DNA of 64,000 bases from an uncultured Pseudanabaenaceae cyanobacterium (GTDB taxonomy: Bacteria > Cyanobacteriota > Cyanobacteriia > PCC-9006 > JAAUQQ01). The stretch is from positions 75,450 through 139,449 of the forward strand of contig CALLAT010000009.1 of NCBI GenBank assembly GCA_938002085.1, in the 5' to 3' direction. How positions within the stretch are numbered: position 1 is the first letter of the stretch; each line of letters opens with the position of its first letter. Shown in pieces: positions 23,776-40,758 of this stretch. The translations under genes were made by a program, and so were the position numbers. The notes beneath the pieces are model-generated. The model did no database searches, had not been told where the DNA came from, and was given only the letters and a program-made list of their open reading frames with translations.

Positions 23776-23867
23776 TGATGCTGTTGGTTTAATATCTCCG
23801 TTGAAAGACTAGCAGAAAAGAGAGCTTGAGATAAAAGGATGGCTCTCAAATAAATCAAAACGGCTAA

Positions 23868-24503
23868 TTACTTAGCACGTAAGAGTAGTACCGTCCAAGG
23901 CAGTGGAGAAGCTACGGCCAAAATGTCAAACTTCTGACTGACAAGATTGATAAATCCTCGCTTTGACCAATGCTGTAGATGAGCAGGGCAGTTACCCCAG
24001 GAGGTTATATAGGCACCTCTGGCGAAGTTCATTGCCCTAAAAATAGGCTCCCTTGGCACACTGAGCAGGGCATAAGGTTTGGCTGCGGTATGCAAATTGT
24101 TGAGTCCTTGAATAGGATCCTCTAAATGCTCTAGCACTTCACAACAAACAACCATTTCAGCTTCTTTAGAGTCGTGCGAAAGGGTGTATATGCTTTGCTT
24201 CTTAAAAACAACTCGCTTGGAGTCTACATTTTGCTTGGCTTCTTGAATAATGGCGTCAGAGATATCTAATGCTTCGATTTCTGCAGAAGAATTCTGCAAA
24301 ATAATCTGGGTGATATGTCCTTCTCCACAGCCAACCTCTAACACATCAGTCGGCTGAATCTCTCTGATGAAGGATGCAATGGTTTTGTCAAAATTACTAA
24401 GGAGTAAACGCCCAATTGGGTTGCGAGTTTTATACTTGACTCCAGAGCCAACTACCACACTACCTTCAAATTTGAATGGGCTCTTTTTATAAGTGCTGCT
24501 CAT
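23868..24503 (-). CDS. Class I SAM-dependent methyltransferase
   Basis: 211 aa. Motif I VLEVGCGEGHIT, motif post-I EALDISD, acidic motif II CCEVLEHL. Confidence 0.75.
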   Translation of the reverse strand: MSSTYKKSPFKFEGSVVVGSGVKYKTRNPIGRLLLSNFDKTIASFIREIQPTDVLEVGCGEGHITQIILQNSSAEIEALDISDAIIQEAKQNVDSKRVVFKKQSIYTLSHDSKEAEMVVCCEVLEHLEDPIQGLNNLHTAAKPYALLSVPREPIFRAMNFARGAYITSWGNCPAHLQHWSKRGFINLVSQKFDILAVASPLPWTVLLLRAK

Positions 24504-24569
24504 ATTCGTCCAACCTTTTCGAAAAATACTGTCTAAATAGATGAAGAAATAAGTTTTTGTTGTCGTTCT

Positions 24570-25193
24570 CTAGCTATTCCTAGAGGCAGAAACGGGAATA
24601 TTTCCCTTTATTTTTCCGGCCTCAATAGATGACGTCGTAAATTCTGGAGACAGGACAACCATTTGATTCGCACCCAGCAAAAAGCGCCTATAGATAAGAA
24701 TTGGGCAGTCCGCAATTTGGGCTATACGCTGTAAAGATGACCTGTCCAACAGCATTTCATGCTCTTCGCTCGCATGGGCACTGAATAACCCCAGCTTTGC
24801 CCCGACATCATGGACCCATTCCAGGCTTGGGTGGGGGGTTGTTAAGACGATCCGACTCTGGCGATTAGGTTGAAGATAGCGGCATAGGTTTTTCAGAAAT
24901 AGATCGGGTTGAGGCACATGCTCAATAACTGCTAAAGAAACGACTGTATCGAAACTTGTTGGTTTTGGCATTTCCATTTGGAATTTATGCCTGGGGAATC
25001 GATGTCGAGCAATGTTGATTGATTCCTCATCATAGTCAACACCAAAATAAAGCTCGGGATCGACTAATGCTGCAAGAGAACCAGCACCACAGCCAATATC
25101 TAAAATGCGACCTCGTAGAAATGGGCTAATTGCTTTGATACGGCATTCTCTTAAGAAAGGAGACAACAAACCTTCGGCACCTTGATCAGCCAT
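24570..25193 (-). CDS. Class I SAM-dependent methyltransferase
   Basis: 207 aa. ILDIGCGAGSLAALV motif I, VDYDEESI, LAVIEHVPQP. Confidence 0.75.
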   Translation of the reverse strand: MADQGAEGLLSPFLRECRIKAISPFLRGRILDIGCGAGSLAALVDPELYFGVDYDEESINIARHRFPRHKFQMEMPKPTSFDTVVSLAVIEHVPQPDLFLKNLCRYLQPNRQSRIVLTTPHPSLEWVHDVGAKLGLFSAHASEEHEMLLDRSSLQRIAQIADCPILIYRRFLLGANQMVVLSPEFTTSSIEAGKIKGNIPVSASRNS

Positions 25194-25248
25194 CGATCCC
25201 TCTCTAGCTCAACTTTAAACCGTTAAATCTATCCTATTCGAGCCAATA

Positions 25249-26331
25249 TTACAGCTTATGGCTCAATATTGACAGGGTGGCTTCCCCAGTATTCTTCCAG
25301 CTAAAGCGGCTTGCTTGAGCAAGGCCTTGAGTCGCTAGCTGCCTACATAATGCTGCATCCTTTAGTAAGGATTTCATCGCTTGTTCTAGAGCCAGTTGAT
25401 CGGTTAAATCAACCTGTAGTGCTGCCTCTCCCGTTACTTCTGATAGCGCACCTGCATGGCTTGTAATCACTGGTGTCCCACAGGCTAAAGCTTCTAAGAC
25501 TGGCAAGCCAAAGCCTTCCCATGCACTTGGAAAGACAAAGGCGATCGCCTGATTAATCAATCGAGGCAAATCAGCATATGGCACATAGCCCAGGAATTTA
25601 ACTTGCTCTACGACTCCCAGCTCCTTTGCCTGGGCCTTGAGTTTGGGGGTGAAGCGAGGATCTGCAACACCCGCGATCCAGAGCTCACAATCTGAGGATT
25701 TGGGTAATTTGGCAAAGGCGGCGATCGCTTTGTCGATGCCTTTGTAGGGGTCATGGCGACCGATGTAGAGGAAGTAGTTTTTTCGAGGCAGGTCTAAGGG
25801 GTTGAAATGGTCCGCATCGTAGGCCAAGGGAATCGGTGTGATCTTGGATGCAGCTATATTGCCAAAGCGCATGACATCATCTGCTGTGGATTGGGAGTTG
25901 CAGATGATGTGCACGGCTTGGTTCAGAACTTGGGGAACGATGAAACGAAAGTAATTGGTGAGTGGCGATCGCCAGCGGGGAAACCGTAGAGGAATAAAAT
26001 CATGGACCATGACGACGGTGCGGCAGCCTCTCCAAAGTGGCATCTCCGGCACAGGTGAAAAGATGAGTGAGGATTGGTGAGACTTGTAATGGCGAGGAAG
26101 TTCCGTTTGGTTCCACAAGAGGCGGCGAGCATGGCCTTTGGAACCCTGCTCAGGCGTTAGATTGGCCTGGATGGTTTGGGTTTGAAAATTGGGGAAACGC
26201 TGGGGCTGGGCGGTGAGGAGGGTGGGATCGAGTGCTGCAAGATGGGGGACGACGTTCAGGGCATAGGTGCTGATGCCGGTGGGTCGTTCCATCAGCATTG
26301 CTAAGTTGATGAGTAGCCCTGAATCAGTCAT
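25249..26331 (-). CDS. GT4 (GT-B fold) glycosyltransferase
   Basis: 360 aa. C-terminal FVFPSAWEGFGLPVLEALACGTPVITS (E-x7-E motif region) typical of group 1 glycosyltransferases. Confidence 0.85.
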   Translation of the reverse strand: MTDSGLLINLAMLMERPTGISTYALNVVPHLAALDPTLLTAQPQRFPNFQTQTIQANLTPEQGSKGHARRLLWNQTELPRHYKSHQSSLIFSPVPEMPLWRGCRTVVMVHDFIPLRFPRWRSPLTNYFRFIVPQVLNQAVHIICNSQSTADDVMRFGNIAASKITPIPLAYDADHFNPLDLPRKNYFLYIGRHDPYKGIDKAIAAFAKLPKSSDCELWIAGVADPRFTPKLKAQAKELGVVEQVKFLGYVPYADLPRLINQAIAFVFPSAWEGFGLPVLEALACGTPVITSHAGALSEVTGEAALQVDLTDQLALEQAMKSLLKDAALCRQLATQGLAQASRFSWKNTGEATLSILSHKL

Positions 26332-26381
26332 CTCGCTGGATGCTCCTCTGTGACTTTGACTGTGCTGGTGTCAATAGAATC

Positions 26382-28184
26382 CTATTGACCTACCATGGCC
26401 TGAAACTCTGAGTTGCGAGCTAGCAATTCGTCGTAGGTTCCAACATCGGCGATCGCGCCTTCCTTCATCCAGTAGATGCGATCGCAGTTGCGAATCGTAC
26501 TCAAGCGATGGGCAATCACCACCAAGGTCTTTTGGCCAATCAGGCTTTCCATCGCTCGGACAATCTCCCGTTCTGTGCCGTTATCCAGGGCTGCTGTGGC
26601 TTCATCCATCACAACGACTTCTGGATTGTGATAAAGCGCGCGGGCAATGGCAATGCGTTGGCGCTGTCCCCCCGAAATTCTGACCCCCTGCTCGCCCACA
26701 CGGCTATTCAAGCGCATGGGCAAACCTCGAATGAAATCTTCGAGTTGTGCTAGACGCAGAACCTGCCAGACTCGATTGTCATCAATGGTGGAATCTGCCA
26801 GTCCAAAGGCGACATTGCGGCGAATTGTATCGTCTGAGAGATAGACCTGCTGCGGAATATAGCCGACCTGTTGTTGCCAAGCCAACAAATTCTTGTCGAT
26901 GGTTTGTCCGTCAACCAGAATCTGTCCCGCCATGGGTTGGAGCAGTCCCAGTAATAGATCCACTAAGGTGGTTTTGCCTGCTCCGGAAGGTCCTGCTAGG
27001 CCAATGGCTTCACCCCGTTTCAGTTCCAGCGAGACCGAATTCAAAGACAGGCTTTTAGAGTCCGGATAGACATAGCTCACCTGGTCTAAAACAATCGATT
27101 CCTGGAGGCTTCGGGGTTGTATGTAGGCTGGCAAACTCTCGTAGCGCGCTAGAAAGTTCTCGTCTTGGGGAATGGCGGTGATATCGGCGTGAACCGCATC
27201 TAGTGCTTTGCTATAGAAACGGATCGTCGTAACCGCAGCCACAATGCGGTTCAGAGACATCATTAGCCGGAATGCGGCGGCGGCAAACAGGGTGAGCAAT
27301 AAAAGCAATGACCGGGGTCGACGTCCCTGGGTTAAGTCCACCACCAGAACCACAAGCAGACAGACGACGGCGAGGGTTTCGATGAATAGGCGGGGTAGCT
27401 TATTGACGAATTGGATGCGCTGGGTCGCTTGGGTATAGCGCTCAACATGGAACCCATAGCGCTCTAAAAAGTAAGGCTCCCGGCCAAGAACTTTGGTCTC
27501 TTTGATGCTGCCTAGACCCTGGTTGACCCACTGGATCATGCGGCCAATGTGGCGATGTTGGCGGCGGCCCCAGAGCTCAATACGTCGCCGAAAACCGTGA
27601 TAAAACACGAGCATAGCGACCCCCAAAAGCGTGACTGCGATCAATGAGGAGATCGGTTCTGCTGCTAGCAACAGCAGGGAGATGCAGATGGCAATTAAAG
27701 ACTCGGTCAACAAAATCATGACGTCGCGCATGACTTCGTTGAATAAATTGGGGATCTCTACGTTGATATTGCGTAGCAGATCCGCTGTGTTGCGCTTGAG
27801 GTGAAATGGATAAGGCTGCTGTAAGTATTGAGATAAGAGTTGCTGGGAAACTTTGCTTTGCTTGCGGTAGATGAACTGGGTTTGCAGATATCCCAACCAA
27901 GCCAAATAACCGTTTTTGCCAATATAGAGACCCATGAGAGCCACGCAGGCCCATTGCACGAAGGTGCGGTAGTCCTCAAATCCTGCGAAATTATAAGCCC
28001 AGCCCACGACGCCGACTTCGCGCACTGCCTTAGCACTACCGAGCAAGCCCACGAAGGAGGGGATAACGCCCACCCCTAAGGTTTCGACAATCGCACCGAT
28101 GAGGGTGAGCGCAACGATGAATAGGAACTCTAGGCGATCACGACTATCCAGAAGACGATTAATCTTGCGAAATATCTGCACCAC
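26382..28184 (-). CDS. ABC exporter, fused TMD-NBD (MsbA/type I exporter-like)
   Basis: 600 aa. Six N-terminal TM helices. Walker A GPSGAGKTT, signature ISGGQRQRIAIARAL, Walker B VVVMDEATAALD. Confidence 0.9.
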   Translation of the reverse strand: MVQIFRKINRLLDSRDRLEFLFIVALTLIGAIVETLGVGVIPSFVGLLGSAKAVREVGVVGWAYNFAGFEDYRTFVQWACVALMGLYIGKNGYLAWLGYLQTQFIYRKQSKVSQQLLSQYLQQPYPFHLKRNTADLLRNINVEIPNLFNEVMRDVMILLTESLIAICISLLLLAAEPISSLIAVTLLGVAMLVFYHGFRRRIELWGRRQHRHIGRMIQWVNQGLGSIKETKVLGREPYFLERYGFHVERYTQATQRIQFVNKLPRLFIETLAVVCLLVVLVVDLTQGRRPRSLLLLLTLFAAAAFRLMMSLNRIVAAVTTIRFYSKALDAVHADITAIPQDENFLARYESLPAYIQPRSLQESIVLDQVSYVYPDSKSLSLNSVSLELKRGEAIGLAGPSGAGKTTLVDLLLGLLQPMAGQILVDGQTIDKNLLAWQQQVGYIPQQVYLSDDTIRRNVAFGLADSTIDDNRVWQVLRLAQLEDFIRGLPMRLNSRVGEQGVRISGGQRQRIAIARALYHNPEVVVMDEATAALDNGTEREIVRAMESLIGQKTLVVIAHRLSTIRNCDRIYWMKEGAIADVGTYDELLARNSEFQAMVGQ

Positions 28185-28420: not shown

Positions 28421-29413
28421 CTATCTTTCCTGGAGATTTCTGCCTTTGGTGGGTAAGCCATCTTGCCAGACCGTCAGGACCTGGGCGGGACGATGGAGTA
28501 ACTTGCGGCGACGGAACCAAGCCAAATTGGGCAGCGCAATCCAACCCAGCATCTTAATTAGCGTCGTGGGCCAAATCCAGCGTCGCCATCTTAATAGTTC
28601 GACCCCGCTGGTCCAGAGCAATTGGCCTGCAAAAGACCAAAACTGGGCATCGTCAAAGCGACTGATTTGAGTGTCTTGTTCCACCTTGGTTAGGGCATAG
28701 CCCAAAACCCAGCTCTCGGGCACCCGATTAAACTTACTTTGGAGCATCTCTAACACCTCTTGGTGCATCGAGACTGCTTGCCCTAGGGTTTTATTCTCCT
28801 CATGGAGGCGGGAGGCGGCTAGGGGCACTGGTAAATAATGGAAGCGCACTTTCTGACCATAGCGAAGCCACAGCTCGTAATCGAGGCAGTAGTGCAGCGA
28901 AACGTTTAAGGCGCCGAGTTGCTCGATCAGTCGTCGACGAAAGAAGACGGCTGGTTGACAGAGAAAACAGGTTTGCTGAAGGCGTCGGTAGCTCCATTTC
29001 TCTGTGGGAAATGGCTCAATAATATGGTCTGCCTCATCGACCCATTTGGCCTGTCCGTAGACTACGTCTACGTCGTCATGGGCATCGAAAAAAGCCTGCA
29101 CCTGCTCGAAGGCTTGGGGATAGTAAAGATCATCGGAGTTGATCCAGGCGATGATATCTCCTTGGGTCATGGCAATGCCCTTGTTGATCGCATCGGCTTG
29201 GCCCTGGTCCGGTTCGGAAATCCAGCGCAGGCGATCGCCATAGCGCTGCAAAATCTCGACTGTGCCGTCACTACTCCCTCCGTCGCACACCACGTAGTCG
29301 AAGGTCACGTTCTGCTGGGCTAGGACACTCAGAATAGTGCGTTCAATAAATTCCCCTTGGCGGAATGAAGGGGTAATTACACTGAACCTCGGAATACTGC
29401 GCTGGGGAGTCAT
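28421..29413 (-). CDS. GT2 glycosyltransferase
   Basis: FSVITPSFRQGEFIERTILSVLAQ...VVCDGGSSDGT...INSDD motifs. Start placed at the internal ATG (MTPQ...) to avoid overlapping the upstream gene's 3' end. Confidence 0.8.
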   Translation of the reverse strand: MTPQRSIPRFSVITPSFRQGEFIERTILSVLAQQNVTFDYVVCDGGSSDGTVEILQRYGDRLRWISEPDQGQADAINKGIAMTQGDIIAWINSDDLYYPQAFEQVQAFFDAHDDVDVVYGQAKWVDEADHIIEPFPTEKWSYRRLQQTCFLCQPAVFFRRRLIEQLGALNVSLHYCLDYELWLRYGQKVRFHYLPVPLAASRLHEENKTLGQAVSMHQEVLEMLQSKFNRVPESWVLGYALTKVEQDTQISRFDDAQFWSFAGQLLWTSGVELLRWRRWIWPTTLIKMLGWIALPNLAWFRRRKLLHRPAQVLTVWQDGLPTKGRNLQER

Positions 29414-29423
29414 TGTGGCCAAG

Positions 29424-30806
29424 CTAGAGCAGGCTCCGGTAAGCCTTAAGAGTTTCTTCTGCGGTTCTGCGCCAGGAGAACTGTGCTGCCTGGGCATATC
29501 CCTTTTCAATCAAGTTTTCCCGTAGGGCTGAACTGTCAATCAGCTGCCAAATCTGCTCTGCTATTTCTGCCGGCACGTTGGGATTAGCATAGAGAGCTGC
29601 ATCTCCGGCGACCTCGGGCAGAGAAGAGACGTTTGAGGTGACGACTGGAGCCCCTAGGGTCATGGCTTCTAAGACAGGTAGTCCAAATCCCTCGTAGAAA
29701 GAGGGGTAGACAAAGACATCCGCTTTGGAATAAAGGGCTTGAACCTGGCGATCACCCAGATAATTTAAGTGATGAATATTGTCACGCCAAGGGGAGCGAG
29801 CGATCGCTTCAAAAATGGGCTCATAGTGCCAGCCCTTCTTGCCAACGAGCAGTAGATCGTGATCCACGCCATGGTCAGACTTGAGGCGATTAAAAGCTTC
29901 CACTAGGTTGTTGATATTCTTGCGAGGCTCGATTGTACTCACGAAGAGTAAAAAAGGCTTCTTCCTATCATAGGAACTTGACTTCGCTAGGTCATCCAGG
30001 ATTCTATCGGTTTCACCGTAGCGAATCGTACGCACCTCACCGGCTGCAGGACGTGAACTGACCCCCACCGGAGTGGCTAGGGGCATCCGTCCAGCTGAGC
30101 CGCCCTGAAAGCCCTCGGCGATCTGAGAGCGTCGAATGTGATTGCCCGCTGCGACCCCAACTTCTTGCCCTAAACCCACCTTCATCTCCAGGGCAGAGGG
30201 AATGGAACAAGCTGCTGGGGCATATTGGCTGGCCAGCGGAGTCACCCAAACTTTATCTGCATCGACCCCCAGGTACTCAACGATGTCTCGCTTGGAACTC
30301 TCAGAAATCGTGATGACTAGGTCCGTCCAGCTGAGACAACGCTCTACCTGGGCTCGATAGGTCTTGACCACATTGTCGACAAACTCGGGATACCGAATGA
30401 AGGTCAAGTCGTAGATATTCATCACGGTTTTGGCCTTACGAGAAGGACAAACCGAATAATTTGTACCGTGAATAATCCCAGCTTGGTCGAAGCGGCGATC
30501 TATATGGGAGGTCAATAAATGCTGCAACGGCGGTGCATTGTAAGCGCCTGCGAGCAATGGGGTGGATAGACGAACCGGTAGGTCCCAAACATGACAGGGA
30601 TGCTTTCCACAGCTCACATTGGGAACCGAAGGCCGACGCATCAACCAGTTCTTCAACCCAGGTTGAAAAAGAGTTTCCACGGTATAGCCAGGCTCGACAG
30701 ACTCGGCCGCGATCGCCTCTAAGGCTCGCACCAAGTTGATTACATAAAGACCGACCCCACTGGGATAGGGGGTCACTGGCGTCACATCAATCAGCGCCTT
30801 TAACAC
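29424..30806 (-). CDS. GT4 glycosyltransferase (two Rossmann-like halves)
   Basis: 460 aa. C-terminal VFVYPSFYEGFGLPVLEAMTLGAPVVTS motif. Confidence 0.8.
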   Translation of the reverse strand: MLKALIDVTPVTPYPSGVGLYVINLVRALEAIAAESVEPGYTVETLFQPGLKNWLMRRPSVPNVSCGKHPCHVWDLPVRLSTPLLAGAYNAPPLQHLLTSHIDRRFDQAGIIHGTNYSVCPSRKAKTVMNIYDLTFIRYPEFVDNVVKTYRAQVERCLSWTDLVITISESSKRDIVEYLGVDADKVWVTPLASQYAPAACSIPSALEMKVGLGQEVGVAAGNHIRRSQIAEGFQGGSAGRMPLATPVGVSSRPAAGEVRTIRYGETDRILDDLAKSSSYDRKKPFLLFVSTIEPRKNINNLVEAFNRLKSDHGVDHDLLLVGKKGWHYEPIFEAIARSPWRDNIHHLNYLGDRQVQALYSKADVFVYPSFYEGFGLPVLEAMTLGAPVVTSNVSSLPEVAGDAALYANPNVPAEIAEQIWQLIDSSALRENLIEKGYAQAAQFSWRRTAEETLKAYRSLL

Positions 30807-30834
30807 AGGGCAATGATTCTCCTAGCGGACAAAC

Positions 30835-31812
30835 TCACTCTTTTGCAGCCTTGAGTTGTTCCATATCGTAGTCCACCATCAGCTCAACTAGTTGTTGGAA
30901 ACTATACTTTGGTTCCCAGCCCATGTCCGTTTTAATCTGAGTCACATCTCCCACGAGCTCAACGGCCTCATTGGGGCGATAAAACTCTGGTGCGACGCTC
31001 ACGTACTTTTCCCAGTCCAAATCTAAGTAGCGAAACGCAAACTCAACCAGCTCCCGAACAGCATAGGTTTGACCACTGGCAATGACGTAGTCCCCAGGGG
31101 TCTCCTGTTGCAGCATCATCCACATGGCTGAGACAACATCTTCCGCATGGCACCAGTCCCGCTTGGCTTCTAAGTTGCCCAAGCGCAGCTCTGAAGCCAA
31201 CCCCAGCTTGATCTGTGCTGCAGTGCGGGTAATCTTGCGAAACACGAATTCCGCACCTCGACGAGGAGACTCGTGGGTGTAGGTAATGCCGCAGCAGGCG
31301 TACAGACCATACTTTTCACGATAGTTGGTCGTCATCCAGTGGGCATAGGCTTTGGCTGTCCCATAGGGATTACGGGGACGGAAGGCAGTCTTCTCTGACT
31401 GGGGAGACTCATCGGGTTGACCAAACACCTCACTACTGGAGGCCTGATAAAAACGGGCTTTAGGCTGGCAGCGTCGAATGGCTTCCAGTAAACGGGATAC
31501 CCCTAAAGCTGTATATTCTGCCGTCAAGGCAGGTTGTGTCCAGGACAGAGGCACGTAGCTTTGAGAAGCGAGGTTGTAGATCTCATCGGGCTGAGTCTCG
31601 GCAATCACATCCATTAAGGAACATTGGTCGAGCAGGTCGCCAGGCACGACATGGACCCGATCCGCAAAATGAGCAATCCGACTCAGGCTTGAGGTACTTG
31701 ACCGCCTCACCAATCCGTAGACTTCGTAGCCTTTCTCAAGCAAGAGCTCGGCCAAATAAGAGCCGTCTTGGCCTGTCAGTCCTGTAATTAAGGCTCGTTT
31801 GGTCACTGACAT
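30835..31812 (-). CDS. gmd: GDP-mannose 4,6-dehydratase
   Basis: KRALITGLTGQDGSYLAELLLEKGYEVYGLVRRSS... with short-chain dehydrogenase YxxxK (YGTAKAYAHW). Strong match to Gmd family by eye. Start at the second ATG (MSVTK). Confidence 0.9.
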   Translation of the reverse strand: MSVTKRALITGLTGQDGSYLAELLLEKGYEVYGLVRRSSTSSLSRIAHFADRVHVVPGDLLDQCSLMDVIAETQPDEIYNLASQSYVPLSWTQPALTAEYTALGVSRLLEAIRRCQPKARFYQASSSEVFGQPDESPQSEKTAFRPRNPYGTAKAYAHWMTTNYREKYGLYACCGITYTHESPRRGAEFVFRKITRTAAQIKLGLASELRLGNLEAKRDWCHAEDVVSAMWMMLQQETPGDYVIASGQTYAVRELVEFAFRYLDLDWEKYVSVAPEFYRPNEAVELVGDVTQIKTDMGWEPKYSFQQLVELMVDYDMEQLKAAKE

Positions 31813-32048
31813 TGGAATAAGTACTAAAGTATTGGTGAGAGAAAGCAAAAGACAACTGCATTTTGCCTGCGGTCAAGGCTTCCCCTGACAACTCAGGATC
31901 AGATTATATGGCTTCAATGTCCAATGATTTAAGTCATTTCAACCTGGATCAATCTTCCTAAATTGTATGCCGTTTCCTTTCAGTGCCTCTGACTCAAACA
32001 TTATGCTTTCCTAGGGGCATGTGGAGGTTGGACGGCAATCGGTTTTCC

Positions 32049-33218
32049 CTAGGGGTCAATGGTGTCCAAGTACTTTTGTTCAATGCTTGCCCAGGTGTAG
32101 TTGGCTTCAACATACTGTTGACCTTGAGCGCCCAGTTGATTTCGAACTTGCGAAGATACCAGTTTCAATATTGCTGCAAGCTCCTCTTTCTCTGAAAACC
32201 ACAGCCCTCCATGGGAGCGATCGCATTGCCCCACTAAGACCGCACAATCCCGATTCACCAACACTGGCTTTTGCAGAGACCAAGCCTCTAAAAGAACAAT
32301 CGAGAGACTCTCGTGGGGAGAAGGCATGACCAACCAGTCACATGCAGCCATGGCATCCCACTTCGTCTGCTCTTCGACATAGCCCAAAGCGATAATGTCT
32401 GGATGGGCTGGAATCTCCATCATCGCCTTGCCCAAAACCACTAGCTTCATCGAAATAGATTGGCTCTCGCGCAGCGCCAAGAAATCTTCAAAAAGTTTGG
32501 AGCAGCCTTTAGATGGATCGACACGGCCGACATAAAGCAAGAACGGACCGTAAATTCCATGGTTCCGGCGAAACGCTTCAGGATGAACGGCGCCAGGAGG
32601 ATTGACAGCCATGCCACAAACGGGGCCATCAAAATCAACGTCTTCGAATTTATTCTGCAAAAATAGCTGCTCTTCTACAGCACTAAAAATGAATCCCTTA
32701 GGCAGCTTAAAAAACTCTTTCCAAATACCGAGATAGATGGGCCATTCATCGTGAGCGAAGGGCACTAAATAACTCTTATGTGCAACCAGCGGCAAGGTGA
32801 AGTAAGTCGTCGCATATAAGTAATTGAAGAAAATAAAAACATCGTACTCGTCTTGATGATTGAGTACATAGTCTTGAAGTCCAGGAGAAATTGGCCCTTG
32901 AGCCTTCATCCATTCTTCTTGGCGAGTAATCGTAGACGTCTCAATGTTTTGTGATACCTCATCGCAAAACAGATTAAACGAAGCAGTTTCCCTTGGCATC
33001 GGAACCGTAAACCGCCGTACCGTCACACCTGAAATCTTTGATTTACCGGGCTTATAGTGATCGGCCCACTCGGAATAATCTAAAGCACAGGTCGTTAAAA
33101 CATCTATATCCCAACAAGAGGCTGCCATATGCTCAGCCACAGCACGGCATAACACTTCAGCCCCGCCATTCACCTCAACGCCATAGCGTTGAATTACAAA
33201 CGCGACTTTTAACTTCAC
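32049..33218 (-). CDS. GT4 glycosyltransferase
   Basis: 389 aa. GGAEV N-terminal motif. C-terminal DWLVMPSPHESLSIVLLEAW region. Confidence 0.8.
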   Translation of the reverse strand: MKLKVAFVIQRYGVEVNGGAEVLCRAVAEHMAASCWDIDVLTTCALDYSEWADHYKPGKSKISGVTVRRFTVPMPRETASFNLFCDEVSQNIETSTITRQEEWMKAQGPISPGLQDYVLNHQDEYDVFIFFNYLYATTYFTLPLVAHKSYLVPFAHDEWPIYLGIWKEFFKLPKGFIFSAVEEQLFLQNKFEDVDFDGPVCGMAVNPPGAVHPEAFRRNHGIYGPFLLYVGRVDPSKGCSKLFEDFLALRESQSISMKLVVLGKAMMEIPAHPDIIALGYVEEQTKWDAMAACDWLVMPSPHESLSIVLLEAWSLQKPVLVNRDCAVLVGQCDRSHGGLWFSEKEELAAILKLVSSQVRNQLGAQGQQYVEANYTWASIEQKYLDTIDP

Positions 33219-34216
33219 TCAATTTCACCTTCAGGACAGCTTCGATATAGGAAAGCAGGTTTCTTTTGCCCGCCTGGGGAAACATTAACTGCTTTCACAA
33301 AAATATATTGTCCAAGATCCTGCTCTCGATGCTTCAATAATTCAGAGTAAATAGGTAGATTTACATCTGCATCGACAGCATTAGCATGAACATCTGCTGT
33401 AAACATTGCCGAAATCTCAAACCCTAAATAAGTTAGTAAAAGGTGAAGCTCGTGCTTGTTGTACTCGCGATTATGCCGACCATAGGGGCCATATCCAGAA
33501 TACGGATCATAGATATTTGTGCCTGATACCATACGCGAAACATTCTCTAGCCGACTCACGTTGGGTGTCGTGAGAATTAGAGTCCCTCCTGGCTTGAGAA
33601 CTCTTTTAATTTTCCGAATGACAGCAGCAGGATCCATCAACAGATGTTCGATGATTTCGCAGCATAATACGAGGTCAAACTGTTCAGATTCGAACGGGAA
33701 AGGCTCTTCTTCAATATTAAAATGGTGAGATGTCAATTCGAGCCGTTGAGGTTCTCCTGCCTCTACAAATGTGACTGCTTGCTTGATCAGTGATTCACAA
33801 TGAGGACCGAAGTAGTTCCCAAATTCTAGATCGAGGTCTGTAAAGCGTTTCAGCAGCATCGTCGTGAAATAAGGGTTCGCACCGAGTTCCAATGCTGTCC
33901 CATTGATGCCTTGAGCCAATCCCCAAGTATAGACAAAACGCCTGAAGTCTTGGCGACAGTAACCTGCCATTTCTTCTTTTGGAGCATCCTCTGGACAAAC
34001 GGACTCCAAAAAACTGAAGAGTTCTTCCTCTGTTAAATTCCCAGGTAGAGGTAAGCCAGGACGTAATGGGAAAAGAGCGTCAGCATTCAGCTTCTCTGGA
34101 CTATTAGAGTTAGCACTGCTTGAATCCTCAAGCGGCTTCTGTTCGGCTGAAAGTGTTGTGTTTAACTTTCGAACTGCTCTTTGGAAATAATTCATGATGT
34201 CCCACTGATAAAGCAA
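33215..34216 (-). CDS. Class I SAM-dependent methyltransferase
   Basis: 333 aa. LELGANPY motif I-like, FDLVLCCEIIEHL, LKPGGTLILTTPN. Confidence 0.7.
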   Translation of the reverse strand: MLYQWDIMNYFQRAVRKLNTTLSAEQKPLEDSSSANSNSPEKLNADALFPLRPGLPLPGNLTEEELFSFLESVCPEDAPKEEMAGYCRQDFRRFVYTWGLAQGINGTALELGANPYFTTMLLKRFTDLDLEFGNYFGPHCESLIKQAVTFVEAGEPQRLELTSHHFNIEEEPFPFESEQFDLVLCCEIIEHLLMDPAAVIRKIKRVLKPGGTLILTTPNVSRLENVSRMVSGTNIYDPYSGYGPYGRHNREYNKHELHLLLTYLGFEISAMFTADVHANAVDADVNLPIYSELLKHREQDLGQYIFVKAVNVSPGGQKKPAFLYRSCPEGEIE

Positions 34217-34234: not shown

Positions 34235-36676
34235 TCAAGTTGTGATGCGCTCTACTAGCTCATCAAGTTTATACCGAACCTGCGCGAGAAGAAATCTTTC
34301 ACGCTGGTCATGCTGAGCTTCAATGACTTGCGATCGCAACTTATTATCCTTGACCATCAAGTGTGCAAGGGCTGCAACGCTAAGCAAATCCTGTTTATGC
34401 TCAAACAAGACCCCCCCATGGCCCAGGGTTTCAGGGACCGCACTGCTCTTATAGGCTAAGACGGGAATATCGAACCACATAGACTCCACTAAGGGGACTC
34501 CAAATCCTTCATGCTCACTCATCGACCAAAATAAGTGAGCTGTTCGATAGCAGGCTAAAAGCTCGGCTTCTTCTACATGTCCTGTAAATAGAACATTGGG
34601 GCGAATGCCCAGCTCAATCATCCATTCAAACAATTCATCGTAAAAAGGATCCTCCTCTCTATATCTACCTACGAGTACGAGGCGAGCTTCGGGATCGAAC
34701 TTAAGATATAAAGCAAATGCTTTGAGGAGATCATCCTGGCATTTGTTCGGTGCAACCCTGCCAACGAACAGAATATTGCTTCTACCGTCTTGAAGTTTTT
34801 CCATCCAAGCCGGATCTGGCTTCATATCCCATTTCCGGGGATTGACAATGATAGGTAAAACATCAGAGCCTAAGAAACCTGACTCAATCAACTCGTCAGA
34901 ATTGTATTGAGAATCGCCTACCGTGATAGAAAAATGGCTAGAGAGTTGAGCTAAATCACGACGCCCTTCCTCTAAAATTAATGCAAAGTTAGGATCATAC
35001 TTCTCAAAGAAATGAGCCGGTGTGATGTTGTGATAGATTAAGCACTTTTTGGATGGATGGCTCACTGCATAAGCTGTTAAATCTGAACCAATTGAATGGT
35101 GATATATCAGACAGGCATTCTTTGAAAAAGATTCAGCAGAAAAGACGTGAGCCTCATGGGTCAACCGTTCATCTAAAAATAAGACATAAATGTCAGAGTG
35201 GTAGCCTCGTTGACGTAAATAATCCCGAATGGCTAATGCTTGATTTGAGATAGCATCTCCATAAGCAAAGCCAGGCAGGAGTTGGTGGATCTCAACCTTC
35301 TTGGATCGCTTTGCCGAGGATTCTGGCTGCGGCCCCTGTGCCAGCATTGCTTGTACTCTTTGAAGAATAGAGCCCCTGACTATTCCTGACGAAGCTTTGC
35401 CTGTTAACGGCTTGTGTTGAGATAACCCTTCTGAAGCCCCACTTTCAGACTCTGCCGGTGATATACCCAGGGCTTTTTCATAACGTCCCAGAACCTTTTC
35501 CCAGTCTGCATTCTCCGCTGCATACTCTTGGCCTCGACGGCCATAGGCGACGCATTCTGCTTCTGCCACATGATCGATGTGCTCAAACTGCTCCGCCCAC
35601 TCTGCTTCCGTTCCAGCCAGCCAGCCTCCTTGAGAGTTCTTGACTGCTAAAGCTGTGGCCAGACAATCCCGATGGACAACGACTGGACGCTGGTAGAACC
35701 AAGCTTCCATCATGACGCGAGAGTAGCTTTCATTTTTGCTCGGCTGAAATAAGGCTAAGCAGCGAGATAGAAGAGCTTCTTTCTCTGACTCACTAACGAG
35801 CTCTAAATCAATAATGTCTGGGGTATTCCCTTCTATCTGAGGGAGTACTCCAGGTCCTGCTAGAACAAGCTTCAAATCAGACTCTGGATGCGCTCTCCTA
35901 TATTCAGAGAAGGCACGCATCAGCAAATCGGTGTTTTTAGTACTGTCTCGTCGTCCTAAGCAAAGAATGAAACGCGATGTTGTGGTCTCGAAGCCCTTTA
36001 CTTCTGCTAAATTCGAGTCAAAGTGCAGCCCAGCTTCTATTCCTGCTCCAGTGGTGAAGCTCTTTAAAGTAATACCTGGTCCATACAGTTGTCTTGCAAG
36101 TTGTGCTTCACCGTCACTAATAAATAGTAATCCTTTCGCAGCATGGAAAATGTCAGAGACATGGGGCAAATAGGCGTAGGACTCGTCATGCAAGCAAGGC
36201 TGTAAAAAAGCACGTTGCTTGACTAAAGAAAGTCCTTGAAGAATCGGGCCATATAAGTAGGGTAAAAATAAGAATGCATCATAGGCTTCTGAATTCTTTT
36301 TTAGGTACTTAAGAAGTTTTGGAGAATTGATGTTCTCAGATACAAAATAATTTGAAAACTCAGGAGATACAGGAGAGACACCCGGCTTTAAGTCAGCCTT
36401 AGGGGTTTGCATTAATTGAGCATTAGCAGCATTAAACTGTGAGTCATTTCGAGCCATCACAGCAAATCGGCGAACCTTTAGATGCCCCTGCTGACTGACG
36501 CCAGGCTTGACATGATTTTGCGACCAATCCTTTTGGAAGGTTTCGCAGCAAGTCGTTAAGACTTCTACCTCATGCCCTCTCGCTGCTAAACGGTTAGAGA
36601 CTTGCCAGCCATGTTGCTCTGCACCTCCTTTCAAAGATTCACCAAACCAAGGAATAACGATCGCAATTCTACTCAT
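34235..36676 (-). CDS. Tandem two-module GT4 glycosyltransferase (WbdA-like serotype-specific polymerising mannosyl/glycosyltransferase architecture)
   Basis: 813 aa with two successive GT-B units. GGAE N-terminal motif, a mid-protein EAWFYQRPVVV motif, and a second unit ending MSEHEGFGVPLVESMWFDIPVLAYKS. Confidence 0.8.
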   Translation of the reverse strand: MSRIAIVIPWFGESLKGGAEQHGWQVSNRLAARGHEVEVLTTCCETFQKDWSQNHVKPGVSQQGHLKVRRFAVMARNDSQFNAANAQLMQTPKADLKPGVSPVSPEFSNYFVSENINSPKLLKYLKKNSEAYDAFLFLPYLYGPILQGLSLVKQRAFLQPCLHDESYAYLPHVSDIFHAAKGLLFISDGEAQLARQLYGPGITLKSFTTGAGIEAGLHFDSNLAEVKGFETTTSRFILCLGRRDSTKNTDLLMRAFSEYRRAHPESDLKLVLAGPGVLPQIEGNTPDIIDLELVSESEKEALLSRCLALFQPSKNESYSRVMMEAWFYQRPVVVHRDCLATALAVKNSQGGWLAGTEAEWAEQFEHIDHVAEAECVAYGRRGQEYAAENADWEKVLGRYEKALGISPAESESGASEGLSQHKPLTGKASSGIVRGSILQRVQAMLAQGPQPESSAKRSKKVEIHQLLPGFAYGDAISNQALAIRDYLRQRGYHSDIYVLFLDERLTHEAHVFSAESFSKNACLIYHHSIGSDLTAYAVSHPSKKCLIYHNITPAHFFEKYDPNFALILEEGRRDLAQLSSHFSITVGDSQYNSDELIESGFLGSDVLPIIVNPRKWDMKPDPAWMEKLQDGRSNILFVGRVAPNKCQDDLLKAFALYLKFDPEARLVLVGRYREEDPFYDELFEWMIELGIRPNVLFTGHVEEAELLACYRTAHLFWSMSEHEGFGVPLVESMWFDIPVLAYKSSAVPETLGHGGVLFEHKQDLLSVAALAHLMVKDNKLRSQVIEAQHDQRERFLLAQVRYKLDELVERITT

Positions 36677-38406
36677 GCCTTATACCCCACTACTGCATAG
36701 TCTTGTGGGCCGTAAAGTAATTCTCCTAGGCGTTGATCTAATTCATTCTCTTCCCTTAACCAAGTGGGCTTCGGAGATTGATTTAAATTCAATATTTGAA
36801 CATTGACGAATCCTCGTGACTCCAGCAGAAATGCCATCATCGGGCTGGGTAGAGGATTCCGGTGGGTCGGATCTAGATAAAATGAACAACTTCCCACGAG
36901 CAAGTTTGCTGGGTTAGGTGTCTCAAAAATAGTTATTCCCCCTGGCTTTAATGCCTTCAGCGAATAATCGAGACACTTAATCAATGCTGGGAATGGAAGG
37001 TGCTCAACCAAATGAAACCCCATGATGCCTCCTAGAGTAGATTCTTCTACAGAAGATAGATAATCAATGGCATCTGATTCAATGACAGTTAATGAACGGG
37101 CTCTACATTGGGCTAAGAAGGCATGATTAATATCCACACCAGTGACAGATTTGTAATTGTGCTGGCTTAAAAGTTCTAGCCATTCTCCTCTTCCACATCC
37201 TAGGTCTATAACGGTATCTTGCTCTGTAGATAAATTAGATTGTTCAAGAATGGGCAAATAAACTTTTAGACGCTCTAGAACGTCCTCGCGTTTTCCTCGA
37301 AACTTTTCTTCAAAAGCAGAATAGAAAGCATCTAAGTGATGCTCTGCTACATGTTCTACTTCCTCTAGAACTTCCGAATCTTTTCGAGAAGAAGGGGAAA
37401 CCAACTGCTTTAGTAAAATCGTTAACTGCTGTTGCTGATGAGCCAAGGATTGCTTGCAGTAGCTGAGATCTTGAATATGCCGCTCTGACGTTGTAGTGAG
37501 CAGGTGACTCGCTTCATTCTGACTGTTTCTTAAGCCCTGAAATATCTGTTCTCGAGTACTGCTTGTTTCAGAGAGTTCAAACAATTTGGCTTCTAAAACT
37601 TCTATTCGCGTTAAACCCGCCTGTTCAGCCTCCAAAGCAAGATGTAGCCGTTGGCCAATCGCCAGGAGATGCTGCTCGACTTGAGCTAGCTTACTTTCCC
37701 CAGCCTCTACTCTGGCTAGTGATGTTTGCTCACCTTCCAAAGACAGATTTAGCCGTTGACCAATTGCTAAAAGGTTCTCTTCTACGCCTACCGTTCGTTG
37801 TATAAGAGCATTGAGTGAGCTTTCAATAGCTTGTTCCTTTTCGCTCAAGGCTTTTTGTTTTGCATCAATGGCTTGTTCTTTTTTGTCTAAAGCTTGCTTG
37901 TATGAATTCGAAGCTCGCTGGGTCTCTGATATGTGACTTTCGAGTTGCCAAAGGCGCTCTTCTATTTCTTTAAGTTGCAGCGATGCTGTCTCAAACTGAA
38001 GCGATTGTTCATCTAGCTCATTGCCTAAACCAACCTTTTCAAGTTGATCATCCTTGAGTAGTCTAAGCAGCTCCTTTAAGGCAATGACAAAGTCTGAATT
38101 TATAACGGTTTGCTTCTTGAAGAGAAACCGAAAACATCGTATTACAAAATCTTGGAGCTTCAGGCTTAGAGAGAAGGGAAAGCGAGAAAACTTTGCTGGC
38201 CATTGCAGAGAGGCCTGGGACTGAAACCTAGCATCATCTACGACGGCTTCAATGCGTTCTAGCCTGTCTAAGTGTTTTCTATATTCCCGTTTCGATTTCT
38301 CGACTGCTGGCACTTGCTCCTGAAGTTTGTTGCAACGCTCAACTTCGAGACGGACCTGTTCCATCAGCTCGTGAACGTCAATTTTAGGATTATTAGAATC
38401 AATCAC
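36673..38406 (-). CDS. Coiled-coil / SAM-methyltransferase fusion protein (WbdD-like chain-terminating methyltransferase candidate, inverted domain order)
   Basis: 577 aa. N-terminal ~350 aa predicted coiled coil with heptad-like repeats LEGEQTSLARVEAGESKLAQVEQHLLAIGQRLHLALEAEQAGLTRIEVLEAKL. C-terminal MT domain with VIDLGCGRGEWLELL, GFHLVEHL, LKPGGITIFETPN. Confidence 0.7.
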   Translation of the reverse strand: MIDSNNPKIDVHELMEQVRLEVERCNKLQEQVPAVEKSKREYRKHLDRLERIEAVVDDARFQSQASLQWPAKFSRFPFSLSLKLQDFVIRCFRFLFKKQTVINSDFVIALKELLRLLKDDQLEKVGLGNELDEQSLQFETASLQLKEIEERLWQLESHISETQRASNSYKQALDKKEQAIDAKQKALSEKEQAIESSLNALIQRTVGVEENLLAIGQRLNLSLEGEQTSLARVEAGESKLAQVEQHLLAIGQRLHLALEAEQAGLTRIEVLEAKLFELSETSSTREQIFQGLRNSQNEASHLLTTTSERHIQDLSYCKQSLAHQQQQLTILLKQLVSPSSRKDSEVLEEVEHVAEHHLDAFYSAFEEKFRGKREDVLERLKVYLPILEQSNLSTEQDTVIDLGCGRGEWLELLSQHNYKSVTGVDINHAFLAQCRARSLTVIESDAIDYLSSVEESTLGGIMGFHLVEHLPFPALIKCLDYSLKALKPGGITIFETPNPANLLVGSCSFYLDPTHRNPLPSPMMAFLLESRGFVNVQILNLNQSPKPTWLREENELDQRLGELLYGPQDYAVVGYKA

Positions 38407-38461: not shown

Positions 38462-39847
38462 TCACAATATTCGAGCTTTTCGCTTCTCTACTTGAAATAG
38501 CCCATGAACAAACTCCGGAGCGACTGCTTGAATAGAGACTGCATTTTGAATCCAGTCCAGCATTTCTAGGTTCTCGTGAGAGCCATCTCCAAATGCAATA
38601 TCTAAAGCATAGGTGCCTGTCGCAAGATAAGGCCACGAAAATTCAAGTTCGATCTTGGATGTTCCTGTCGGAGAAACCTCAACCCATTGCTGGGAAAAGT
38701 GGTGATCGAGTAGATCGGTACTCCAACCAGACAATACGGTTCTGAGGCGGTCTAAGAGAGCGATACCCACATGGGGATGTTTGATCGCGCTATGGCGGGT
38801 GACCGTTACCTCCACAATGACCACTTTCCCTGGCTCTGCAAAGGGTAAAGGGACCCGATCTGAGTCCAAAACTCTGACAGATAGTACTTCTCCTCGACCC
38901 GATCCAAAACGCTCGCATTCTTTAAGAGCTTGAAATTCTGCGTTGGTAAATAGGTTGATGCCGCTGCGTGTTAATGCATCAACTTCTATGTCTCCTTTCT
39001 GTGTGACTTCCACAGGTGGGGGAGGAGTTTCTACTTCGGAGGAGGGGACTTCACTCGGTAAAACATTATTTTCGATTTCTTCCGGTTGCGACTGATATTG
39101 CTGATTAACTCTTTGATATACCCAGGCTTGGTAATGCTTACAGATATCTGCAGGCAAACCCTGTTCAACAATCTTGCCTCCATTAATCCAAATAGCCTTG
39201 GAACAGAGTCGAGAGACTGAACCCACATCATGGGACACAAACAGGATTGTCCCCCCTGCGGCTTGGAAGTCTTTGATTTTGGCCATGCAACGGTGGACAA
39301 AAATTCCATCTCCGACAGCCAGAGCCTCATCCACAATTAAAATTTCAGGCTCAACATTGATGGCTACGGCAAAGGCAAGGCGGACAAACATACCGCTGGA
39401 ATATGTTTTGACCGGCTCATCCATAAAGTCCCCAATCTCAGCAAATGCTGCAATACGCTCAAATTTTTGAGCAATATCCTCCCGCGCGAGGCCCAGAATC
39501 TGGCCATTAAAGAAGACATTTTGGCGGCCCGTAAACTCAGGGTTAAAGCCACTACCGAGTTCGAGCAATGCCGCAACACGACCTGATGTTTTGACCTGAC
39601 CTTGGGTGGGGGTTAGGGTTCCTGCAATGATTTGCAGGAGTGTGCTTTTACCTGAGCCATTTTGGCCAATGATTCCTAAGGTTTCTCCCCGAGCAACGCT
39701 CAAGTTGATGTCGCGAAGCGCCCAAAACTCTTCCGCTCGATTTTTGCCGGGTAATAGAATCTCCTTTAAACGGTCTGTGGGATGGGAATAGCGCTTATAT
39801 CCCTTAGACACATCAGAGACTTCAATCGCATAGGTTTGTTCAGACAT
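38462..39847 (-). CDS. wzt: O-antigen/polysaccharide ABC transporter ATP-binding protein Wzt with C-terminal carbohydrate-binding extension
   Basis: 461 aa. NBD with GQNGSGKSTLL, LSGGM-like signature SSGMFVRLAFAVA, Walker B ILIVDEALAVGD. An extra ~190-aa C-terminal beta-rich domain follows, as in Wzt of E. coli O8/O9a. Confidence 0.85.
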   Translation of the reverse strand: MSEQTYAIEVSDVSKGYKRYSHPTDRLKEILLPGKNRAEEFWALRDINLSVARGETLGIIGQNGSGKSTLLQIIAGTLTPTQGQVKTSGRVAALLELGSGFNPEFTGRQNVFFNGQILGLAREDIAQKFERIAAFAEIGDFMDEPVKTYSSGMFVRLAFAVAINVEPEILIVDEALAVGDGIFVHRCMAKIKDFQAAGGTILFVSHDVGSVSRLCSKAIWINGGKIVEQGLPADICKHYQAWVYQRVNQQYQSQPEEIENNVLPSEVPSSEVETPPPPVEVTQKGDIEVDALTRSGINLFTNAEFQALKECERFGSGRGEVLSVRVLDSDRVPLPFAEPGKVVIVEVTVTRHSAIKHPHVGIALLDRLRTVLSGWSTDLLDHHFSQQWVEVSPTGTSKIELEFSWPYLATGTYALDIAFGDGSHENLEMLDWIQNAVSIQAVAPEFVHGLFQVEKRKARIL

Positions 39848-39885: not shown

Positions 39886-40758
39886 CTAGAGAACGTCTGC
39901 AAAAGCAGGAGTGAGCTTTCGATAAATGAATCGTCCCAAGAGAAAGACAACTAAGCTAATGATGAATAGGCTGAAACCATAGGTCTCCAGGGTCTCAGTA
40001 CTTCCCCAAAAGACAAGATCACGGTATAACGCCGTAATGGTGGCCAAGGGATTGAACATCATGACCCAATGCTCAAAGCTGCCAAGCTTCTCGGGTCCAT
40101 ATACAACAGGGGTTAAATAGAAAAGTAGGTTTAAGATAATGCCGACACTTTGGGCAATGTCGCGAATAAATACAGTCAAACCGGCCACGATATAACAAAG
40201 GCCAGCTGTCAGCATCATTTGCATTCCCCAAACTAATGGCAGTAATGCGAGTTGCCAAGGCAGACTGTGGGTGAGGAAGGCTAGCAATACGATCAGTACG
40301 GCTAACCCAAACGCACTTTCAATTAAGGCGGAGAAAACGGGAACTAGCGGTAGCAAGCTTAGGGGGAAAACCACCTTCTTGACGAGGTTCACCTGTCCCA
40401 CTACGGCATTAGATGCCTGGGTGACGCTGGTGGAAAAAGCAATCCAAGGTACGAGGGCGGCGAAGAGCCATAGACCAAATAGGAGAGTGCTATCGGGGTC
40501 AAAGCCGCGAGAGGCCAACATCATGGCTTGGGGACTTTGACCCTGAACCGGAAGCTTGACCCGCAAAACGATTGAAAACACATAGGTGTAAATCAATAGT
40601 TGAGAAATCTGGTTAAGTAAGGGCCAGAGATTTCCGAGCATGGAGCCCTTGTAGCGGGCCTCTAGATCTCGGCGAACCAGCATTTGCAATAGGCTGAACT
40701 TGGATAAACGCTCAAGTTTTGAAAATAGCCATTGTTTTAGGGGAAGCTTAAGGCGCAT
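39886..40758 (-). CDS. wzm: ABC-2 type polysaccharide export permease Wzm
   Basis: 290 aa, 6 TM helices, ABC-2 family organisation. Immediately upstream of wzt. Confidence 0.8.
   Translation of the reverse strand: MRLKLPLKQWLFSKLERLSKFSLLQMLVRRDLEARYKGSMLGNLWPLLNQISQLLIYTYVFSIVLRVKLPVQGQSPQAMMLASRGFDPDSTLLFGLWLFAALVPWIAFSTSVTQASNAVVGQVNLVKKVVFPLSLLPLVPVFSALIESAFGLAVLIVLLAFLTHSLPWQLALLPLVWGMQMMLTAGLCYIVAGLTVFIRDIAQSVGIILNLLFYLTPVVYGPEKLGSFEHWVMMFNPLATITALYRDLVFWGSTETLETYGFSLFIISLVVFLLGRFIYRKLTPAFADVL

Follow-up and report, generated by a model that had tools for sequence, protein, structure and literature searches.

Does the 577-aa open reading frame (ORF) that follows wzt in a cyanobacterial surface-glycan operon encode a chain terminator whose parts run in the reverse of the familiar order? 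The question is raised by a stretch of 64,000 nt from an uncultured Pseudanabaenaceae cyanobacterium (assembly GCA_938002085.1, contig CALLAT010000009.1, positions 75,450 to 139,449), which is called the window here and to which all positions refer. The ORF occupies 36673..38406 on the minus strand (38406->36673), opens with GTG, and encodes a protein, the target, that consists of an N-terminal module (N-module), a heptad rod and a C-terminal methyltransferase (MT) of the WbdD(O8) type. We consider it probable that the target is the chain terminator of a surface glycan dependent on a Wzm/Wzt ATP-binding cassette (ABC) transporter, and that it is a polarity-inverted member of the O8 type, acting by the mechanism set out below. 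The domain anatomy, the catalytic homology to O8 WbdD, the operon context and, across the family, a fixed catalytic end joined to a variable rod were all observed directly. From these we infer capping, membrane binding, polymerase docking, an oligomeric state and a ruler effect; the case for capping is firmer than that for a ruler effect.

The GTG start at 38406 was backed by the relatives P0002, P0004 and P0005, all of which open with MIDSNNPKIDVHELMEQ, and the protein recorded at NCBI/ENA for the source contig (P0133) likewise has 577 aa, in agreement with that start. Alignment with relatives divided the target into four parts: the N-module, the variable repeat rod, a short linker and the MT domain. 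With Pfam, a class I S-adenosylmethionine (SAM) methyltransferase was found at aa ~393-537 and nothing N-terminal of it. The whole domain, aa 356-577 (36676..37341, minus strand), is of the WbdD(O8)/3dli type and carries the motifs FYxAFEExFRG, DLGCGRGEWLE, GFHLVEHLPF, FETPNPxN and FYxDPTH. Its homology to the catalytic domain of O8 WbdD, for which the sequence of E. coli IAI1 was used, was clear. BLASTP aligned aa 359-514 of the target with aa 4-158 of O8 WbdD (44% identity over 156 aa, E 2e-46), and a local alignment of aa 360-577 with aa 4-217 covered the whole domain at 40% identity over 224 columns. Motifs common to the two proteins are FYxSFEExxRG, GCGRGEWLE, GFHxxEHLPF, ETPNPxN and FYxDPTH. 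Identity to E. coli O9 WbdD was just 24% over 152 aa, and WbdD was not among the top structural matches of the target. The kinase that follows the MT in the O9a type was seen neither by Pfam nor in the AlphaFold2 (AF2) model of the target. O8 WbdD has been described as a "simple methyltransferase" terminator, an MT without a kinase that adds a terminal methyl (PMC3482155), which is consistent with the lack of a kinase in the target.

The order of the parts sets the target apart from O8 WbdD. Beyond its MT, O8 WbdD has a heptad-periodic segment at aa ~225-315 and then a cationic amphipathic helix at aa 337-354, so that the catalytic domain is N-terminal and the coiled coil and anchor are C-terminal; this order is reversed in the target and its ~200 closest relatives. 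The coiled coil follows an N-terminal catalytic unit in every characterised terminator of the literature covered, namely WbdD of O8 and O9a, WbbB, Klebsiella ORF7(O4), Klebsiella ORF6(O7) and the methyltransferase of E. coli O101 (PMC11231755, PMC3482155, PMC13168486); the inversion in the target is therefore real. Synechocystis slr1610, which has been proposed as a terminator (PMC3769361) and is annotated as a putative C-3 methyltransferase, was not counted here as a characterised member. No description of the reversed layout was found in the literature searched, outside which the 2019 census (Mann, Kimber and Whitfield, Glycobiology) may list it. The original prediction, made from the letters of the window and its ORFs, had proposed a WbdD-like protein with inverted domain order. 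It was right about the exact coordinates of the ORF (the strand is minus), the C-terminal class I SAM-MT domain, the absence of a visible kinase domain by Pfam and the inversion itself. Those parts of the proposal that could be checked all stood, one link being stronger than the prediction knew.

The rod, aa 126-335 (37402..38031, minus strand), is helical and heptad-periodic. Its register begins already at aa 96, and it would measure ~31 nm as one continuous helix. A Fourier spectrum of hydrophobicity over aa 96-335 gave a single sharp peak at period 3.50 (z 8.7; 0/500 shuffles), and no peak was found in the MT domain of the target. Comparable signals came from the positive controls, the known coiled-coil segments of WbdD from E. 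coli O9 (z 4-8) and O8 (z 3.4-3.8). Register tracking identified three unbroken heptad runs, aa 96-192, 193-312 and 313-340, with two register shifts between them, and 66% of the a/d core positions were hydrophobic (z 4.7; 0/200 shuffles). These two methods were used in place of an ad hoc 28-residue heptad score, which failed to tell the rod apart from shuffled sequences of matched composition. AF2, run on a 45-sequence alignment (mean predicted local distance difference test score, pLDDT, 77.8), placed helices at aa 10-62, 81-94, 96-224 and 239-335, followed by an alpha/beta domain with pLDDT >90. The helices, the periodicity and the register tracking all point to an extended coiled-coil spacer in the same polypeptide as the MT; matches to Pfam coiled-coil profiles were weak.

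Within the rod there are two 35-residue (five-heptad) repeats, LLAIGQRLxLxLExEQ..., at aa 211-280 (37567..37776, minus strand), which produce an autocorrelation peak at lag 35. At the DNA level, a ~20-21-nt tandem repeat of 2.9 copies (37823..37883, minus strand) encodes KEQAI(D/E) heptads at aa ~175-195. This short ~20-nt repeat was the sole find of Tandem Repeats Finder on the DNA; the 35-residue duplication was not picked up and has diverged at the DNA level. The LAIGQRL motif that the original prediction saw recurring is thus this duplication. Its ~350-aa N-terminal heptad-like region was right in kind and too long: the heptad-periodic rod spans just ~210-245 aa, and the first ~125 aa form a conserved, non-repetitive module. 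The coiled-coil propensity that it asked about was borne out by the period of 3.50, the register and the AF2 helices, but not by the Pfam profiles, which stayed below threshold.

The same AF2 model allows for another arrangement, in which the rod is an antiparallel hairpin (helix 96-224 packed against 239-335) that places the MT beside the N-module at the membrane and has no spacing function. The two long helices are split by aa 221-238, a glycine-containing stretch inside the first 35-residue copy and the sole low-confidence stretch in the rod. However, the heptad run at aa 193-312 crosses this break with its register intact, and this speaks against a turn of the chain at that point. The helices are also unequal (129 vs 97 aa), relatives extend the rod by one-sided tandem arrays, and AF2 is unreliable on the hairpin question when it models a homo-oligomeric coiled coil as a monomer. 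We therefore regard the hairpin as very improbable.

The N-module, aa 1-125 (38032..38406, minus strand), is conserved and non-repetitive, with the motifs MIDSNNPKIDV..., WPxKFxRFPF and LQxFxxxxFxFLFKKQ, and alignment showed that it is kept in cyanobacterial relatives. No transmembrane segment was found in the target. Of its segments, aa 80-97, LSLKLQDFVIRCFRFLFK (38116..38169, minus strand; hydrophobic moment muH 0.56, charge +3, four aromatics), scores best as a cationic amphipathic helix and is a candidate in-plane membrane helix. An identical scan of WbdD O9 picked aa 620-637, inside the C-terminal non-catalytic domain (aa 460-708) that includes the region reported to bring WbdA to the membrane (PMC3482155), and in WbdD O8 it picked aa 337-354, close to the C-terminus. 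The top helix is, therefore, at the end opposite the MT in all three proteins. We propose that the N-module is the membrane-proximal anchor and the polymerase-docking end. A profile of the N-module compared with the C-terminal regions of O8 and O9 WbdD gave an hhalign probability <1%, so homology was undetectable. The target thus has only an analogous cationic amphipathic helix where a terminal region homologous to the membrane- and WbdA-binding region of WbdD was looked for. A clean circular permutation of the whole WbdD protein was also considered and is not supported by this negative result; the lack of detectable homology between the anchor modules suggests domain shuffling around a common catalytic domain, with an analogous anchor. 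When the N-module alone was the query against 1.84 billion representatives, matches were found in 76 proteins (representatives at 50% identity), and the MT was at the end in 29/31 full-length N-module proteins.

The operon supports the proposed role. It runs on the minus strand in the order glmS-like gene, wzm, wzt, target, two-module glycosyltransferase (GT) of family GT4, MT, GT4, GDP-mannose 4,6-dehydratase, GT4 and GT2. By Pfam, wzm (39886..40758) encodes an ABC-2 permease and wzt (38462..39847) an ABC ATPase whose C-terminal part is a carbohydrate-binding module, Wzt_C (aa 311-452, nt 38492-38917; E 1.7e-22). The nucleotide-binding domain of this Wzt is 48% identical to that of E. coli O9 Wzt. 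On the other side of the target, the start of the two-module GT4 gene (34235..36676, minus strand) overlaps the target stop by 4 nt; its 813-aa product has a WbdA-like architecture and is 25% identical to E. coli O9 WbdA over 242 aa. The target accordingly lies where it was predicted to lie, between a WbdA-like tandem GT and wzt; its neighbours encode the polymerising GT and a Wzt that has the carbohydrate-binding module. E. coli O8 and O9, with wzm-wzt-wbdD-wbdA, have the same gene order as wzm - wzt(Wzt_C) - target - tandem GT4 here. The pairing of a coiled-coil terminator with a Wzt that has a carbohydrate-binding module has been published as the hallmark of capped-glycan systems (PMC11231755, PMC11127046), and in the window the permease, the Wzt_C ATPase, the GTs and the coiled-coil protein were found in one operon.

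The mechanism that we propose starts at the cytoplasmic face of the membrane, where the N-module would hold the target by its cationic amphipathic helix and would probably also dock the two-module GT4, the polymerase that is translationally coupled to the target. Oligomers formed by the heptad rod, some 30-36 nm long (aa ~96-340), would carry the C-terminal MT away from the membrane. Once the lipid-linked chain was long enough for the distal MT, its non-reducing terminal sugar would be O-methylated and elongation would stop. The methyl cap would then be read by the Wzt_C module of Wzt, licensing export. In this way, the length of the rod would help to set the modal chain length.

A tethered MT could instead act on internal residues of every repeat unit, with the cap made by another MT of the cluster or by none. 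The three further MTs in the cluster fit this possibility, as do the relatives, which often have another MT next door. The catalytic domain is, however, 40-44% identical to that of O8 WbdD, the adder of a terminal methyl (PMC3482155), and the target is the only one of the cluster MTs with a long N-terminal extension past its Pfam domain (the rod tests covered the target alone). In addition, the coiled coil is a published marker of terminators (PMC11231755), and the family co-occurs with Wzt_C. Internal methylation is, therefore, quite unlikely.

A protein search of 5.8 billion sequences returned at least 1456 matches, the closest named ones being cyanobacterial, and a scan of one genome per species returned 557 relatives; the locus counts given below are for the best 80 loci. 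The MT was at the extreme C-terminus in all ~200 closest relatives. In the 120 best protein matches, the C-terminus came a constant 174-191 aa after the SAM motif, and the N-terminal extension, measurable in the 109/120 with a recognisable domain-start motif, ranged from 113 to 588 aa. The best 80 loci gave the same picture, with 169-186 aa from the SAM motif to the C-terminus in 79/79 scorable ORFs and extensions of 38-1729 aa. The loci belong to Cyanobacteria, Acidobacteriota, Desulfobacterota, Nitrospirota, Verrucomicrobiota, Bacteroidota, one Firmicute and one archaeon, and members are also found on plasmids of Pseudomonas and roseobacters. A Wzt-like ATPase was present within 8 kb at 52/80 loci (46 upstream on the same strand, 19 immediately adjacent), and 45/52 of these neighbouring Wzt carry Wzt_C; of the other loci, many lie on short contigs.

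The rods of these relatives are repetitive as well. Repeats with a 3.5 periodicity are 7, 14, 28, 35 or 42 residues long, and those with a 3.67 periodicity are 11, 22 or 44 residues long (Microcystis-type, z up to 26); lengths of 15 and 18 residues also occur. Judged by their sequences, these are lengths compatible with coiled coils. Periodicity with z >3 was seen in 55/79 genomic rods, and the lengths of Microcystis-type members are spaced ~22 residues apart. Rods of relatives matched Pfam Tropomyosin above threshold (P0156, E 1e-11, 45 bits vs the cutoff of 38.6), and in P0156 the Myosin_tail, Filament and crescentin-rod matches all fell under the curated thresholds. Such variation could have another cause. 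The target could be a true capping terminator whose rod is an oligomerisation or scaffold element only, with chain length set mainly by the ratio of terminator to polymerase or by kinetics, and with the rod varying by neutral repeat drift. Simple rod repeats could indeed expand or contract neutrally. We nevertheless hold this explanation to be unlikely: the repeats are confined to coiled-coil-compatible lengths (7n, 11n, 15, 18), the catalytic domain is always at the far end, and the same logic is found in a fused GT-rod-MT protein, described next.

That protein is encoded at L034:3111-8804 (+), in a metagenome-assembled genome of Syntrophobacteraceae (JBEKTT010000006), by a single ORF of 1898 aa. 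It joins three GT4 modules, DUF4214, a hydrophobic stretch, twelve 9-residue "ALKADRDEL" repeats and a C-terminal MT of the target family, and wzm begins 23 nt downstream of the ORF, followed by wzt. From its sequence, it reads as a mirror-image counterpart to WbbB and ORF6(O7), fusions in which polymerase, ruler and terminator are "all-in-one". Other relatives carry different heads. P0146 (L085:8001-9956, cyanobacterial genome GCA_018447775.1) consists of the N-module, a heptad-repeat rod of (D/E)xxEQRI units and an MT-kinase unit that is 29% identical to aa 5-371 of E. coli O9 WbdD over 382 aa (E 2e-47), in an operon of the order wzm-wzt-X-GT4-GT4. A true O9a-type catalytic pair, therefore, rides on the same reversed scaffold. 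The metagenomic proteins P0004 and P0005 have an N-terminal ~270 aa nearly identical to that of the target and a different C-terminal MT, as if the catalytic head had recently been exchanged on a common scaffold. In P0012, P0015, P0016, P0139 and P0158, a sulfotransferase (PF00685/PF13469) is fused N-terminally, ahead of a complete N-module, rod and MT, suggesting that two modifications may be made by one scaffold.

The neighbourhoods of the relatives vary too. In a Nostocales locus, a 611-aa double-MT protein (Methyltransf_24 + Methyltransf_25; L001:6091-7923) is encoded between wzt and the rod-MT gene. About a dozen other Nostocales loci have a ~1.9-kb gap between wzt and the homologue, which suggests the same double-MT insertion. 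Nostocales clusters of this kind are unusually rich in methyltransferases. An IncP plasmid of Pseudomonas monteilii (NZ_CP014061, 40754-45462; L084) carries genes for a Wzt with Wzt_C, a 477-aa DUF4214-rod-MT protein of the target family, a GT and a GDP-mannose 4,6-dehydratase. This cluster adjoins Tn3 and mer genes. Since these genes are on a plasmid, a piece of such a glycan cluster is mobile.

Several points weigh against the target being an inverted terminator and ruler of this kind, in addition to the undetectable homology between its N-module and the ends of WbdD. Pfam coiled-coil profiles matched the isolated rod of the target only below threshold (Fib_alpha, E 0.006). There are several glycines in the rod besides the low-confidence AF2 break at aa 221-238, and the model leaves some slight room for a fold-back that would bring the MT back towards the anchor. 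The cluster contains three other stand-alone MTs, and there are Nostocales relatives with the extra double MT between wzt and the homologue; therefore, the cap may be made by another of these enzymes. The Wzt encoded beside P0146 has 246 aa and no carbohydrate-binding module and, thus, some scaffold-bearing systems are without the module. Mutants of Wzm/Wzt in Synechocystis were altered in extracellular polysaccharide, not O-antigen (PMC3769361), so the class of the polymer, O-antigen or another exported glycan, is uncertain. The terminator role, finally, is deduced from sequence. As a caveat of another kind, the architecture is not rare but widespread, and several matches bear the IMG name "O-antigen chain-terminating methyltransferase". 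Taken with the evidence above, a polarity-inverted terminator of the O8 type is still the reading that we favour for the target.

A broader reading can be put forward more tentatively, and we would not give it quite an even chance. The N-module and the variable rod could form a portable, polarity-inverted "ruler cassette", with an N-terminal anchor, interchangeable C-terminal capping heads and a rod tuned by the gain or loss of 7-, 11-, 22- or 35-residue repeats. Among the O8-type terminators of Cyanobacteria, Acidobacteriota, Desulfobacterota, Pseudomonadota and others, the reversed layout, and not that of E. coli, would then be the usual one. The heads seen on the scaffold are the O8-type MT, a second MT type and the O9a-type MT-kinase; the extra sulfotransferase sits before the N-module, at the N-terminus. 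If the broader reading is true, the ruler mechanism would be independent of chain polarity. A coiled-coil ruler and terminator is among the few understood ways in which bacteria measure a polymer, and every example studied has an N-terminal enzyme and a C-terminal anchor. A widespread family with that catalytic domain at the opposite end of the rod, countable rod repeats and swappable heads offers a natural test of whether spacing alone sets chain length and of whether polarity or a particular anchor matters. The analysis also gives an annotation that is specific and testable to a gene that is common in cyanobacterial surface-glycan clusters but uncharacterised. Flocculation, grazing and phage susceptibility are all influenced by such glycans. 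The value of the finding is tempered because the ruler concept was already known and the family already auto-annotated as chain-terminating methyltransferase. In short, the target represents a known kind of system in a variant of inverted polarity, one that is widespread, loosely auto-annotated and, in the literature searched, uncharacterised.

The remainder of the operon (28421..34216, minus strand) was assigned by Pfam and encodes a stand-alone MT (33215-34216), a GT4 (32049-33218), the GDP-mannose 4,6-dehydratase (30835-31848), a second GT4 (29424-30806) and a GT2 (28421-29509). Downstream of it, at 22783-28184 (-), are genes for a fused MsbA-type ABC exporter (26382-28184), a GT4 (25249-26331), two small MTs (24570-25193 and 23868-24503) and a membrane protein of the LPG_synthase_TM family (22783-23775). 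These may be a second export or modification unit. Elsewhere in the window, two ORFs, 20228-22537 (-) of 769 aa and 48976-50178 (-) of 400 aa, had no Pfam match at the thresholds applied. A YhcG-type PDDEXK nuclease (DUF1016_N + YhcG_C) is encoded at 50616-51689 (-), amid housekeeping genes.

Among the known systems, O8 WbdD and its Klebsiella O5 counterpart are alike to the target in having a homologous catalytic domain, no kinase and a heptad-periodic helical spacer. O8 WbdD also shares the cationic amphipathic helix opposite the catalytic end and a gene located between wzt, with its carbohydrate-binding module, and a polymerising GT4. It differs in its order, which is MT(1-217)-coiled coil-anchor, whereas that of the target is anchor-rod-MT. 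Its rod has ~90 aa compared to ~210-245 aa in the target, and the anchor modules are without detectable homology. The MT-kinase WbdD of O9a and Klebsiella O3, with its trimeric coiled-coil ruler, resembles the target in operon position and overall logic (PMC3482155). The O9a protein and the target also have a similar basic, aromatic amphipathic helix (HFIKRVLRFVF vs DFVIRCFRFLF), but the O9a protein has a kinase, its parts are in the opposite order, and its MT is the 24% identical one noted above. PDB 3dli, an uncharacterised SAM methyltransferase of Archaeoglobus fulgidus, differs in being a stand-alone protein of 240 aa with no rod or anchor. WbbB (Klebsiella O12), ORF6 (O7), ORF7 (O4) and the O101 MT, some of which are fused to polymerase GTs (PMC11231755, PMC13168486), have their counterpart in the 1898-aa protein of Syntrophobacteraceae. 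In these four, unlike in the target, the coiled coil comes after an N-terminal terminator, and their catalytic chemistry or fold (GT99, GT137, methyltransferase-kinase) differs from that of the target as well.

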